Assembly: GCA_003131685.1 (NCBI GenBank)
Contig: PKWB01000124.1
Span: 1 to 39,066, forward strand
Reading direction: 5' to 3'
DNA: 39,066 bases
Source: Candidatus Dormiibacterota bacterium
GTDB lineage: Bacteria > Chloroflexota > Dormibacteria > Aeolococcales > Aeolococcaceae
Made by a program: the position numbers and the translations under genes. Below the pieces are notes generated by a model. The model saw only the letters and a program-made list of their open reading frames with translations. It was not told the DNA's origin and did no database searches. Positions 20,496 through 28,441 of the stretch are shown here, piece after piece; position 1 is the first letter of the stretch, and each line of letters begins with the position of its first letter.

Positions 20496-21482
20496 GTGAC
20501 CAGCGAAGCGTGGGGATCTCAGCCGTCCTCAACCGCCGCAGCCGGCGCGAACCCGGCGGCTGTCCTCCGGCAGGTCCTCCTCTGGGCATCGCGGCGCCGT
20601 CAGCTCAAGCGGCTGATCACATCGGCTCCGGTCACGCGGGACGTGGTTCGACGCTTTGTCGCCGGCGAGACCATCGATGACGCGCTCCGGGTCACCCGGA
20701 CCCTCACCGGCGACGGGTTGCAGGTGTCGCTCGACCACCTCGGCGAGGACACCCTCGACATCGCCACGGCGAGTGCGGCAGTCGACGCGTACCGCGCCCT
20801 CGCCCGGCGGCTTGCCGAGGGAGGCCTCGCCGCCCGCGCCGAGATGTCGGTCAAGCTCTCCGCGGTGGGGCAGGCGCTCGACGAGTCCATGGCACTCGAC
20901 AACGCGAGGTCGATCTGCGACGCCGCTCGCGCAGCCGGCTCGTCGGTCACGATCGACATGGAGGGTCACACCACCACGGACTCGACGCTGCGCATCGTCG
21001 GGCTGCTCCGCCAGGATTTCCCGGCGACCGGCGCGGTGCTCCAGGCGTCACTCCGTCGAACTGAGGACGACTGCCAGGCTCTCGGTGTGCCCGGCTCGCG
21101 CATCCGTCTCTGCAAGGGTGCGTACCAGGAACCTGCCTCGCTCGCCTGGCAGCGTCCCGATGACATTCGCGCGGCATACGTCCGCTGTCTCGGCACGCTC
21201 ATCGCGGGTGGCGCCCTGCCGATGGCCGCGACCCATGATCCGAAGCTCGTCGACGCAACTGGACGCCTGGTCCGGGAGATCGCGGGACCCGGATTCAAAC
21301 ACGAGTACCAGATGCTCTACGGGATCCGGCCCGATGAGCAGCGCCGCCTGGTCGCGGCCGGTGAGACGGTGCGCGTCTACGTGCCCTTCGGCGTTCAGTG
21401 GTACGGGTATCTCATGCGCCGCATGGCCGAGCGACCGGCCAACACCGCGCTCTTCCTGCGATCCCTGGTGAGCAGGAACTGA
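20496..21482 (+). CDS. Proline dehydrogenase family protein
   Basis: ORF 20496..21482(+), 328 aa, GTG start. Reads RFVAGETIDDALRVTRTLTGDGLQVSLDHLGE...SVKLSAVGQ...VTIDMEGH...IRLCKGAY...ATHD...YQMLYGIR...VRVYVPFG. Confidence 0.8.
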   Translation: MTSEAWGSQPSSTAAAGANPAAVLRQVLLWASRRRQLKRLITSAPVTRDVVRRFVAGETIDDALRVTRTLTGDGLQVSLDHLGEDTLDIATASAAVDAYRALARRLAEGGLAARAEMSVKLSAVGQALDESMALDNARSICDAARAAGSSVTIDMEGHTTTDSTLRIVGLLRQDFPATGAVLQASLRRTEDDCQALGVPGSRIRLCKGAYQEPASLAWQRPDDIRAAYVRCLGTLIAGGALPMAATHDPKLVDATGRLVREIAGPGFKHEYQMLYGIRPDEQRRLVAAGETVRVYVPFGVQWYGYLMRRMAERPANTALFLRSLVSRN

Positions 21483-22426
21483 TGGCCGCCTCGACGCAGA
21501 CCGCGCGTGTGGTCGTCACCGGCGGTGCCGGGTTCATCGGGGTGCACAGCGTCGAAGCGCTGCTCGCTGCCGGCGGCGAGGTGCTGGTCATCGACGACCT
21601 CCGTCACGCCTCGTACCGTCGCCTCCCCGAGTCGGCGCGGGTCGAGGTTGCCGATGTCGCCGAAGCGCAGGCTCGCGAGGCGATCCGGACCTGGAAGCCG
21701 ACCGCGATCCTCCACCTGGCCGCCCAGGGCGGCGTGAACCGATCCTGGCGCGAGCCGGCCGAGGACGCTCACATCAACGTGCTCGGGACGGTGAGCGTGC
21801 TCACAGCGGCGATGGCCGCCGGGTGCCGCCGGGTGGTCGTCGCCTCCTCCGGAGGGGCGCTCTACGGAGCCGCCCGACGGCTGCCGACCCCCGAGGACGA
21901 GCCGACCCAGCCGCGCTCGCCGTACGGCACCGCCAAGCTCAGCATCGAGCACTACCTCGGACACTTCACGCGCGCCGGGTCACTCGACGCCCTGGCGCTG
22001 CGCTACGGCAACGTGTACGGACCAGGACAGGACGGCACCGGAGAGGCGGGGGTGGTGGCGATCTCCAGCCACCGTCTGCTCGCCGGCACGGCGCCGGTCA
22101 TCCGGGGGGACGGCTCTCAGACGCGCGACTTCACCTATGTCGGCGACATCGTCGCGGCCAACCTGCTCGGGCTCGGCTCGAGCGTGACCGGAGCGATCAA
22201 CATCGGCACGGGGCGGGAGACCGGGATAGGCGACCTGGTCCGCCGCCTGTGCGCTCTTGCCGGCTACGCCGGGGAGCCCGAGCTCGAACCGCTCCCGCCT
22301 GGCGAGGTGGCGCGCAGCGCACTCGACAGCTCGCTTGCCGCCGAGCGCCTCGGCTGGCGGCCCGGTGTCACCCTCGATGATGGCCTGGCCCGCACCCTGG
22401 AGAGCTTCCGCGACCAGGTTCAGTGA
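21482..22426 (+). CDS. NAD-dependent epimerase/dehydratase (UDP-glucose 4-epimerase-like extended SDR)
   Basis: Inner ATG 21482 of ORF 21398..22426(+), in a TGATG overlap with the proline dehydrogenase stop. Motifs TGGAGFIG and YGTAKLSIE (YxxxK). Its stop TGA (22424-22426) directly abuts the stop of the convergent GT-C gene (22427-22429). Confidence 0.85.
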   Translation: MAASTQTARVVVTGGAGFIGVHSVEALLAAGGEVLVIDDLRHASYRRLPESARVEVADVAEAQAREAIRTWKPTAILHLAAQGGVNRSWREPAEDAHINVLGTVSVLTAAMAAGCRRVVVASSGGALYGAARRLPTPEDEPTQPRSPYGTAKLSIEHYLGHFTRAGSLDALALRYGNVYGPGQDGTGEAGVVAISSHRLLAGTAPVIRGDGSQTRDFTYVGDIVAANLLGLGSSVTGAINIGTGRETGIGDLVRRLCALAGYAGEPELEPLPPGEVARSALDSSLAAERLGWRPGVTLDDGLARTLESFRDQVQ

Positions 22427-27173: not shown

Positions 27174-27376
27174 GCAAGAAGCTCCTGGGGAGTGTTGACT
27201 CTGCGACCTTCGCGAAGAAGAGCTTTCGAAGGGGTTATGGACTGGATTATGCCTACACGATCCGTCGATTGGCCATGCCAGCCGCTCTTCGCCGGCTCGA
27301 AGGCCTGGGAACGAACGCATTTGAATCGCGCAATCCATCGACCCGGCGACGGACAAAAGAGCGACAATCAGCTTTC
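27174..27376. promoter_or_regulatory. Divergent control region between sqdB-like operon and flippase-like gene
   Basis: 203-nt spacer containing TTGACT (27195-27200), a perfect 10-bp palindrome CTTCGCGAAG (27208-27217) and a related TTCGAA (27225-27230). Third-position G/C of the tracked ORF 27269-27376 is only about half, so this stretch is non-coding-like. Confidence 0.4.
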
Positions 27377-28441
27377 GTGTCGATCTCGGGTTCTGCTCGC
27401 CGTGGGCGTCTGCTCCGGGCGGCGATCACCAGCGTCGTCACCGTCCTGGTGCTTCTGCTCGTCTGGCACCTGTTCGGCGGGAACCACCTCCGCTGGCAGG
27501 GCATCAACCCCTCGGTCGGATCGATCGCGCTGGCCGCATTCGGCGCCGCCTGTTTCCTCGTGGGACGCGCGTGGCGGTTCGCGGCACTGCTCCCGAGGCG
27601 TGAGGGCAGTTCGCGCGAGTTGCTCGGAGCCACGGCAGCATCGTGGGGAGCGGGCCTGTTGCTGCCCGGACCATCTGCCGATATCACGTTCGTTGCGCTG
27701 GCGCGGACACGATTCGGCGTCGGCGTCGCGCGAGGGTCTGGCAGCGCGATCGTGGCTCGAATCCTCGATGTCGTCAGTCTGTCGCTGATCGCGGTTGTCG
27801 CGGCCTTCTTCACCGGAACCCATGTCCACCCCGCGGTCATCCTGGCCGCCGCGCTGGCATTCGGCGTTGGTCTCGGCGCGCTGCTCTCGCTGATCATCCC
27901 CGGACCCCGGTCCCTGGTGACCAGGCTTGCGGCGCGGATTCCGAGGCTCGCCGGGGTCGCCACCCGTGCCGAGGCCGAGCTCGATGTGCTCAACAGCCGT
28001 GCCCGGTGGGCCAACCTGGTCGGCAGCACCATCTTCTGCCGGGTCGCCACGGTCATCCAGTACGCGGCGCTGATGAGCATGGTCGGGCTGCACCTGGGGT
28101 TCTGGCAGACGTGGTTCGTCCTGTCGATCCGGACCCTGCTCCTGACCATCCCCATCCAGGGAATCGCGGGTATCGGCACCGGTCAGGCATGGTGGGCCGG
28201 AGCGCTGCTCCTCGAAGGCGTCAACGGCTCGCTCGCCGTCGCGGCCGGTTTGACCCTGCAGGCGATCGACCTTGCGGTCTCGCTGCCGGTTGCGGGCATC
28301 GGCAGCACGCTGCTCTTCCGCCGCAAGCGGGACCGCTCAGCCGAGGAGCCCGCCGACGACGACGTGAGCGATGAGAAGCCGGGGCGCGACGTGGTGGGGA
28401 CGCCAACCCCGCCGTCACGCGAGCCCCTTCACGTCGCCTGA
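27377..28441 (+). CDS. Flippase-like polytopic membrane protein (lysylphosphatidylglycerol-synthase TM-domain/UPF0104-like)
   Basis: ORF 27269..28441(+). Start placed at GTG 27377, where GC3 rises sharply. About 8 TM segments. The pattern ...[23 protein letters not shown]...[10 protein letters not shown]...[23 protein letters not shown] resembles this family. Acidic, non-hydrophobic C-terminal tail. Confidence 0.65.

Follow-up and report, generated by a model that had tools for sequence, protein, structure and literature searches.

What does a bacterium do with UDP-sulfoquinovose when the gene for the synthase (sqdB) is clustered with genes for a family 2 glycosyltransferase (GT2), a flippase-like membrane protein, a GalE-like epimerase and two membrane glycosyltransferases of the GT-C type (GT-C1 and GT-C2)? 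This question is raised by six genes on contig PKWB01000124.1 (assembly GCA_003131685.1), whose 39,066 nucleotides, analysed over their full length and called the window below, have a G+C content of ~68% and derive from a metagenome-assembled genome (MAG) of Candidatus Dormibacterota, an uncultured soil bacterium. To our knowledge, the biosynthesis of sulfoquinovose (SQ) serves only sulfoquinovosyl diacylglycerol (SQDG) lipids and a few archaeal N-glycans. An initial annotation, made from the DNA alone, had proposed that the cluster may load SQ onto a polyprenyl phosphate and attach it to an envelope component outside the membrane. On the evidence set out below, we consider it probable that this self-contained module uses a lipid carrier to place a 6-sulfo-6-deoxyhexose on an acceptor outside the cytoplasm.

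The window SqdB aligned with Arabidopsis SQD1 (PDB 1qrr) over 381 residues, 229 of which were identical (60%; E 1.9e-153), and the alignment was colinear, the only gap being one residue at the C-terminal end. This agrees with the earlier description of the protein as a short-chain dehydrogenase/reductase (SDR) colinear with SQD1/SqdB over nearly its whole length, and the two sequence blocks cited in that description (18 and 11 residues, the latter with the Tyr-His-x-x-Lys motif) were both present. Residues R101, T145, Y182, H183, K186 and Q209 of SQD1 correspond to R103, T147, Y184, H185, K188 and Q211 of the window SqdB, so that all six are conserved, and the alignment places the protein with SQD1, with the catalytic His and the other site residues retained. 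In SQD1, Thr145, Tyr182 and Lys186 together with His183 are the catalytic residues, and Arg101 and Gln209 belong to the active site. The NCBIfam model for UDP-sulfoquinovose synthase, NF041015, matched SqdB at profile positions 2-372 of 384 with 470.9 bits (E 2.9e-141), under its equivalog cut-off of 575 bits, and the next-best SDR model reached 40.9 bits. The direct comparison with SQD1 was given priority over this cut-off, which is a classifier threshold and not a biochemical feature; as the match to SQD1 was far stronger than that to any other SDR family, the score under the cut-off was taken as a property of the model. Close relatives of the window SqdB carry the JGI name UDP-sulfoquinovose synthase, and the SqdB of contig PMOL01000011 (Candidatus Dormiibacterota MAG palsa_834) is 99% identical to it. 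Taken together, these data predict that the window SqdB is a true UDP-sulfoquinovose synthase of the SQD1/SqdB type.

The surroundings of sqdB were compared in 80 loci from GTDB species, chosen as those with the SqdB most similar to that of the window, onto which the other five window proteins were mapped. The GT2 subfamily of the window was found beside sqdB in 21 of the 80 loci, almost all of which also had the epimerase and a protein of the PF03706 family, and the same gene set was present in another eight loci, taken from metagenomes and from other assemblies, which brings the total to ~29 loci. Among the 80, the loci with the module come from Dormibacterota and Chloroflexota as well as from one 'Eisenbacteria' MAG and one unclassified MAG. 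Because the same gene set recurs in ~29 independent loci, the arrangement is not due to chance. Three gene orders were found (with the PF03706 gene written as LPGTM and the epimerase gene as Epim): the window type, LPGTM< SqdB> GT2> GT-C1> GT-C2> Epim<; a second, LPGTM> Epim> SqdB> GT2< (GT-C<); and a third, SqdB> LPGTM< Epim> GT2<, with a divergent GT-C gene. SqdB, the epimerase, GT2 and the PF03706 protein form a near-constant core, whereas the GT-C varies. In ~24 of the 29 loci a GT-C gene adjoins, and its family changes by lineage, from PMT_2-like proteins (three subfamilies) to DUF2142-like proteins, DUF2079 proteins (E ~1e-63) and GT87. Of the sqdB-GT2-GT-C-GT-C synteny that the initial annotation had put forward for comparison, the linkage of sqdB and GT2 held, and the identity of the neighbouring GT-C did not. 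A conserved donor-making core combined with a replaceable GT-C is the hallmark of the three-component systems of the Gtr type.

In a neighbour-joining (NJ) tree of 78 SqdB sequences, all module-linked SqdB proteins fell into one clade. One member of this clade (L035) has no module within 10 kb, and the sister clade consists of Dormibacterota SqdB proteins with no glycosyltransferase gene nearby. Two loci that would have extended the module to Archaea were rejected: those assigned to 'Nitrosopolaris' (L027, 67% GC) and 'Micrarchaeaceae' (L041, 63% GC) are both probably mis-binned bacterial DNA, and the latter has bacterial-type flanks, with an OmpR/histidine-kinase pair and an MftR-like regulator.

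GT2 is a 247-residue protein of the GT-A fold (PF00535, E 2.8e-23). Its best relatives of solved structure were three ArnC structures (E 2e-21 to 3.5e-17; 2e-21 for 9hwj), the dolichyl-phosphate mannose synthase (DPMS) of Pyrococcus (5mlz) and GtrB of Synechocystis (5ekp), all of which are polyprenyl-phosphate glycosyltransferases, and its best NCBIfam match was ArnC (7e-21), in line with its first description as a GT2 resembling GtrB, ArnC and DPM1. The motifs VDD, DxDGQ, RxxRxD, DC.[LM]K and HxPRxxGxRSG were invariant across 18 GT2 orthologues and aligned with ArnC; the metal site of the DXD type, D98-G-D100-G-Q, was likewise invariant among the orthologues. No transmembrane (TM) helix or hydrophobic segment was predicted in GT2, which ends in a C-terminal amphipathic stretch only. 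The protein belongs to a separate subfamily, and is proposed to work like ArnC, not to be an ArnC. An NJ tree placed the GT2 proteins of the module in one clade apart from GT2 proteins not linked to sqdB, and the GT2 subfamily is discrete and was ancestrally linked to sqdB.

The initial annotation had read two further genes as GT-C membrane glycosyltransferases, and both products exceeded the gathering score of PF13231 (PMT_2, 26.1 bits), with 37.4 bits for GT-C1 and 43.1 bits for GT-C2; the latter also matched PF09913 above its gathering score (40.6 bits). Nine hydrophobic segments were found in each. In GT-C1 the motif EPHWYTDE after TM helix 1 was invariant, and its D28-E29 pair was invariant in 38 sequences; in GT-C2 the pair D44-E45 after TM helix 1 was invariant in 10 orthologues, as were the motifs QQPPLYYL and KET. 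The DE motif would lie in the first extracytoplasmic loop of both proteins. PDB sequence searches with the two GT-Cs gave nothing meaningful. An AlphaFold2 model of GT-C1 built with 38 homologues was confident (pLDDT 80.4, pTM 0.84) and predicts an ArnT-like enzyme: its best fold match was ArnT with bound undecaprenyl phosphate (5f15; E 1.3e-7, TM-score 0.59/0.56), followed by AglB/STT3/PglB, AftA/AftB, Pmt4 and ALG3/12.

In-frame fusions of GT2 and GT-C1 (752-809 aa) were found in several independent clusters. In these proteins, the catalytic domain of GT2 with its C-terminal amphipathic helix is joined cleanly, by a short linker, to TM helix 1 and EPHWYTDE of GT-C1, and the loci that encode them keep the operon order of the window, LPGTM< SqdB> [GT2-GTC1]> Epim<. 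These fusions are strong evidence that GT2 and GT-C act in one pathway, and their architecture fits a cytoplasmic GT2 domain on a GT-C with its N-terminus inside. Apparent fusions of SqdB with GT2 in the protein database (P0002, P0003, P0004, P0007 and P0009; 546-658 aa) were rejected as indel or frameshift artefacts of long-read MAGs. Their linkers are out of frame and match exactly what is obtained when the GT2 frame is read through upstream, some of these proteins have garbage C-termini, and the frameshift behind such a fusion is directly visible in one locus (L007, 11079-11225).

The gene divergent from sqdB had been described as encoding a flippase-like polytopic protein. Its product matched PF03706 at profile positions 6-299 of 302 with 52.6 bits, above the gathering score of 33.4 bits, and has ~8 hydrophobic segments; members of this family occur in most module loci. 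A PDB sequence search with this protein returned no match, and a single-sequence AlphaFold2 model was unusable (pLDDT 51). The MprF flippase domain and the C-terminal domain of AglD in Archaea both belong to PF03706/UPF0104 (PMC5898192; preprint 10.1101/2022.03.11.483950), and members of UPF0104 have been predicted to be flippases (PMC5898192). The window protein is accordingly named here as a candidate flippase for a lipid-linked sugar.

The sixth gene product matched the UDP-glucose 4-epimerase of PDB 4zrm (E 4e-71) and 2p5u (E 5e-59), and contains the catalytic Ser, Tyr and Lys in the motifs SSGGALYG and YGTAK. It reached 138 bits with TIGR01179, under the 262-bit cut-off. The protein is predicted to be a GalE of the short class with UDP-hexose 4-epimerase activity. 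An orthologue adjoins sqdB and/or GT2 in nearly all module loci, no epimerase of this type was present beside any of the other sqdB loci among the 80, and the epimerase stays with GT2 where sqdB has moved away, GT2 and epimerase being the tightest pair of the module. As the initial annotation stated, the gene abuts the end of the operon stop to stop; the comparison adds that in other genomes it belongs to the core of the module and is more than an abutting gene.

The association was also approached from the side of the glycosyltransferases. A metagenome scan was seeded with the GT2 alignment and scored with a home-made hidden Markov model (HMM) of the GT2 subfamily. As the N-terminal motifs are very generic, the scan returned mostly unrelated GT2 proteins, and two of its 80 loci belonged to the subfamily; these two (at least 292 bits with the GT2 HMM) had SqdB, epimerase and PF03706 genes beside GT2, and no locus at or below 241 bits had them. 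Together with ten loci reached through homologues of GT2 or GT-C1, five of which have sqdB, this gave 12 loci found independently of sqdB. In seven of the 12, sqdB was present, once frameshifted and once as a fragment at a contig end. The five others (L164, L165, L169, L170 and L171, each at ~8001-11500) form one clade of Dormibacterota in which GT2 directly follows nuoN, usually with a convergent epimerase gene (Epim<) and a PMT_2 gene after it, and in two cases with a polysaccharide deacetylase. As their GT2 proteins nest inside the sqdB-linked radiation in the NJ tree, the nuo-linked arrangement is regarded as derived. One of these genomes has sqdB on a different contig, L021 having the same assembly prefix (JBJKSO01) as L164. 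Among the 12 loci, the retention of GT2 without adjacent sqdB was confined to this one derived clade, and the association of GT2 with sqdB appears to be ancestral and mostly retained, not absolute.

The identity of the parts, their conserved linkage, the fusion of GT2 with GT-C and the ArnT-like fold predicted for GT-C1 can be read as successive steps of one pathway. SqdB would convert UDP-glucose and sulfite into UDP-SQ, by homology to the crystallised enzyme. The GalE-like enzyme may either epimerise UDP-SQ at C4 or balance the pool of UDP-Glc and UDP-Gal. GT2, as a soluble relative of ArnC, DPM1, GtrB and PpgS, would transfer the sulfosugar to polyprenyl phosphate at the cytoplasmic face of the membrane, the PF03706 protein would move the charged lipid-linked sugar across it, and the two GT-Cs would transfer the sugar to one or two envelope acceptors, which may be a polymer, a lipoglycan or a protein. 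In this sequence of steps, we infer the donor and the acceptor of GT2, the role of PF03706 in flipping, the membrane face at which the individual steps take place, and the final acceptor.

The use of a lipid carrier, suggested already by the initial annotation, gained support from the ArnC, DPMS and GtrB relatives of GT2, the ArnT-like model of GT-C1, the swapped GT-C and the GT2-GT-C fusions, and UDP-SQ could be used by no glycosyltransferase of the module besides GT2. Several points weigh against it. The support is purely comparative and from structure prediction, and the organism is uncultured. GT2 has none of the C-terminal TM anchor helices of GtrB, ArnC and archaeal DPMS, and scores far under every curated equivalog cut-off (ArnC, 74.5 against 529 bits; PpgS, 39.3 against 370 bits); because of the missing TM helix and these scores, it is only the family neighbours of GT2 that suggest polyprenyl phosphate as its acceptor. 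C-terminal TM helices are absent from PpgS, Ppm1 and human DPM1, too. The PF03706 proteins that have been characterised or proposed act on finished lipids, lysyl-phosphatidylglycerol (Lys-PG) and glucosaminyl-phosphatidylglycerol (GlcN-PG), not on polyprenyl-phosphate sugars. There is no sqdB or PF03706 gene within 8 kb of the nuo-linked GT2 genes, and the pair of GT2 and epimerase can be inherited without an adjacent sqdB. This pair would be explained if the donor of GT2 were not a sulfosugar at all. The GalE-like enzyme would then make UDP-Gal or UDP-GalNAc, GT2 would load the sugar onto polyprenyl phosphate and the GT-C would transfer it, as in the mycobacterial PpgS/Rv3779 pathway for galactosamine, and sqdB would be a passenger that feeds a sulfolipid synthase encoded elsewhere. 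The unit of GT2, epimerase and PMT_2 behind the nuo operon in five loci without adjacent sqdB (two with the deacetylase), the tightness of the GT2-epimerase pair, and the ordinary short-GalE motifs of the epimerase with no obvious sulfonate-binding signature all speak for such a donor. We regard it as unlikely nevertheless, given that the nuo-linked GT2 proteins are derived and nested in the sqdB-linked radiation, that one nuo-linked genome keeps sqdB on another contig, that sqdB has been inherited together with the GT2 subfamily in ~29 loci through three rearrangements, that the module has no second transferase capable of using UDP-SQ, and that, among the 80, none of the remaining sqdB loci has the module-type epimerase beside it.

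The lipid specificity of the known PF03706 proteins would be accommodated if GT2 made a finished sulfoglycolipid, with SQ on the head group of a glycerolipid or phospholipid, and the PF03706 protein flipped this product to the outer leaflet, as proposed for MprF (Lys-PG), GpgSDF (GlcN-PG) and HexSDF; the GT-Cs would then serve another purpose. A lipid product would suit the kinship of the PF03706 protein with the flippase domain of MprF and with the flippase predicted in GpgSDF, the near-constant occurrence of the PF03706 and GT2 genes in the module, and the lack of TM helices in GT2. However, GpgS is a GT4 and not a GT2 enzyme, and the nearest sequence relatives of GT2 all use polyprenyl phosphates. 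A GT-C gene is adjacent in ~24 of the 29 loci despite the replacement of its family, and the fusion of GT2 to GT-C in several lineages is hard to explain if the GT-C is unrelated to the pathway, so that we find a finished sulfoglycolipid quite improbable. Least of all do we expect that sqdB has come to lie by accident beside an unrelated three-component glycosylation cluster. The immediate flanks encode unrelated metabolism, and the window epimerase ends an unrelated string of plus-strand genes, as an accidental neighbourhood would. This is contradicted by the synteny, with the same set in three gene orders and at least two phyla, by the clade-specific co-inheritance of SqdB and GT2, and by the 5-nt, 0-nt and overlapping junctions in the window operon, and the chance of such an accident is considered very slight.

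For lipid-carrier-dependent decoration, the identity of the sulfosugar has to be considered in addition, as the transferred sugar may be sulfofucose, the C4 epimer, and not SQ. Among the sqdB loci examined, the epimerase occurs only with the module, and it stays with GT2 where sqdB is elsewhere, which suggests that the product of the epimerase is the substrate of GT2; with SqdB acting upstream, this product would be UDP-6-sulfofucose. The GalE-like enzyme would then be a UDP-sulfoquinovose 4-epimerase, and the module would make UDP-6-sulfofucose, load it onto polyprenyl phosphate and install sulfofucose on the envelope. The presence of one cytoplasmic transferase only in the module is in favour of this. 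A sulfonate-specific signature was sought in the epimerase and none was found, its motifs being those of the ordinary short GalE class of Thermus and Thermotoga; moreover, the position that corresponds to R185, the carboxylate-binding Arg in UDP-GlcA epimerases, varies between G, F, R, H and Y. As no sulfonate-binding signature is present, the sulfofucose pathway is kept as a tentative, minority reading. Sulfofucose occurs in the N-glycans of Thermoplasma and Cuniculiplasma, and up to 2025 neither its biosynthesis nor its catabolism had a known pathway (PMC12421959). Thermoplasma encodes an SqdB homologue (NP_394533).

The systems GtrA/GtrB/GtrC of Shigella and Salmonella phages, CsbB/GtcA/YfhO and ArnC/ArnE-F/ArnT likewise encode a GT2 that makes a polyprenyl-phosphate sugar together with a flippase and a GT-C. 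In these systems, too, the donor-making part is conserved and the GT-C is variable, and the window GT-C1 is structurally closest to ArnT. The window module differs in that its donor would come from SqdB and be a sulfonated 6-deoxyhexose, in that its flippase candidate belongs to PF03706 (MprF type) and not to GtrA (PF04138) or the ArnE/F type, and in having a GT2 without TM helices, two GT-Cs and, in relatives, GT2-GT-C fusions. No gene of the GtrA family (PF04138) was found in the cluster. By analogy, the module would work like a Gtr system without being a member of that group. The same three families stand together in Archaea, in the AglD/AglR/AglS step and in the neighbourhood of arCOG00897 (AglD-like GT2), arCOG00899 (UPF0104) and arCOG00563 (PMT/STT3-like), and this trio was predicted in 2015 to be an archaeal glycosylation module with UPF0104 as the flippase of dolichyl-phosphate sugars (PMC5898192). 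The window module differs from it in being bacterial (Dormibacterota, Chloroflexota) and in having sqdB and the GalE-like gene. Because the trio had been predicted in Archaea, the architecture is of a known kind, and what is new is the input through SqdB and GalE and the bacterial setting.

The other known uses of UDP-SQ and of PF03706 proteins each share a part of the module. In the agl1-agl4 cluster of Sulfolobus acidocaldarius, the UDP-SQ synthase Agl3 is clustered with a membrane-bound glycosyltransferase and supplies UDP-SQ to a non-lipid glycoconjugate, SQ being a component of the N-glycan (PMC4388408); there SQ is predicted to be added by Agl1 directly from UDP-SQ onto a glycan linked to dolichyl pyrophosphate, and the supply genes encode a glucokinase and a pyrophosphorylase. 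The partners in the window are different, namely an ArnC/DPMS-like GT2, a flippase-like protein, GT-Cs and a 4-epimerase. SQDG synthesis, by sqdB with the GT4 enzyme SqdX/SQD2 or the GT8 enzyme SqdD, shares its first enzyme with the module, the window SqdB being 60% identical to plant SQD1. In contrast to SQDG synthesis, neither the window open reading frames (ORFs) that were scanned nor the module loci examined yielded a GT4 or GT8 gene, and the partners here are GT2, PF03706 and GT-C. GpgSDF, which makes GlcN-PG in P. aeruginosa, and MprF likewise have a PF03706/UPF0104 protein beside the enzyme that forms the charged head group of a lipid; unlike the window module, they use a GT4 or an aminoacyl transferase, make finished phospholipids and have no GT-C partner. 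The known non-lipid sulfosugars found in the literature were all archaeal (SQ in Sulfolobus, sulfofucose in Thermoplasma, methyl-SQ in Haloferax). Neither SQ linked to polyprenyl or dolichyl phosphate nor a bacterial SQ glycoconjugate besides SQDG was found described in a full-text literature search, in line with the remark of the initial annotation that it knew of no such bacterial pathway.

The features of the cluster are listed in Table 1. A public contig identical to the window (an ENA metagenome) carries independent gene calls with the same boundaries for the six genes, in agreement with the initial annotation at every one of them. The minus-strand operon had been described as nearly free of spacers, and base-by-base reading confirmed this: the stop codon of sqdB (TAG, 25949-25947) is followed by 5 nt (cgccg) and the GTG of GT2 at 25941, the stop codon of GT2 (TAG, 25200-25198) directly abuts the GTG of GT-C1 (25197-25195), and GT-C1 and GT-C2 are joined by a GTGA overlap at 23665-23662. 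In the same reading, the stop codon of the epimerase (TGA, 22424-22426) abuts the reverse-strand stop codon of GT-C2 (22427-22429). The sole match resembling a sigma-70 promoter between 21300 and 28600 lies upstream of sqdB on the minus strand (27275-27246) and fits the consensus only weakly. The scan of the window locus found no terminator-like site, and Rfam and tRNA scans of the window gave no matches. Another claim that held was that no SQDG synthase is visible here: neither the window ORFs that were scanned with Pfam, two of them without a match, nor the independent gene calls revealed a GT4 or GT8 gene.

Table 1. Genes and intergenic region of the sqdB cluster (positions are those of the window)
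Feature	Position	Strand	Remarks
Epimerase (GalE-like UDP-hexose 4-epimerase)	21482-22426	+	Convergent with the operon
GT-C2 (PMT_2/DUF2142-like)	22427-23665	-	Translationally coupled to GT-C1 via the GTGA overlap
GT-C1 (ArnT-like, ~9 TM helices and a C-terminal extracytoplasmic domain)	23662-25197	-	
GT2 (no predicted TM helix; candidate polyprenyl-phosphate sulfosugar synthase)	25198-25941	-	
sqdB (predicted UDP-sulfoquinovose synthase, SQD1/SqdB type)	25947-27173	-	First gene of the operon
Intergenic region (203 bp) between the divergent sqdB and PF03706 genes	27174-27376	unstranded	
PF03706/UPF0104 polytopic membrane protein (MprF-flippase-domain family; candidate flippase)	27377-28441	+	Divergent from sqdB

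The cluster is flanked by genes of unrelated metabolism, with Pro_dh, enoyl-CoA hydratase and AtuA on one side and a pyridine-nucleotide disulfide oxidoreductase and a pirin on the other. The start of the epimerase gene overlaps the stop of the proline dehydrogenase gene (20496-21482) by one base, and the epimerase gene, though part of the core of the sqdB module elsewhere, here comes last in a row of unrelated plus-strand genes (AAA_16, AtuA, enoyl-CoA hydratase, Pro_dh). Farther away, in a region that includes the minus-strand genes at 7212-8936 and 4285-5025, the window encodes a major facilitator superfamily transporter with a C-terminal cyclic-nucleotide-binding domain and, near it, a subtilase, a GAF-domain protein and a regulator of the Crp family. 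The plus-strand gene at 14377-15582 encodes 401 aa that end in a CHAP (peptidoglycan amidase/peptidase) domain, which hints at an envelope that contains peptidoglycan.

Some of the loci compared showed other surroundings of sqdB. In three MAGs assigned to 'delta proteobacterium' (L038, L039 and L040, ~9000-14500), sqdB is flanked by three or four generic GT2 genes (117-133 bits with the GT2 HMM), which may represent another use of UDP-SQ outside SQDG. Acidobacterial sqdB loci (L064, 4632-5855; L048, L050, L056, L058, L062, L074 and L079) have in common a neighbouring membrane protein of ~407 aa that resembles, by eye, a glycosyltransferase of the ceramide-glucosyltransferase/HpnI type and could be an alternative sulfolipid synthase. 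In a cyanobacterial locus (L060), SqdX was not found adjacent to sqdB. A few kb from the module in one locus (L026, 6572-8773), a 733-aa ORF combines luciferase-like monooxygenase and UbiA prenyltransferase domains in a putative fusion.

Taken together, the sequences of this conserved cluster point to a bacterial use of UDP-SQ beyond the plant-type sulfolipid. If the sugar is sulfofucose, the module would provide the first biosynthetic route to it and the first bacterial sulfosugar glycoconjugate besides SQDG; the cluster is a concrete and cloneable candidate for this pathway, and is small enough for heterologous reconstitution. If the lipid-carrier pathway proposed here is true, polyprenyl-phosphate sulfohexose would be a new donor for GT-C enzymology, and the PF03706 protein would be a test case of whether flippase domains of the MprF type also move polyprenyl-phosphate sugars. 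SQ is a major metabolite of the sulfur cycle, and Dormibacterota are abundant in soils and peat. The module would then be a new sink and source of organosulfonates in these environments, and would give the envelope of a candidate phylum a strongly anionic decoration that is free of phosphate.

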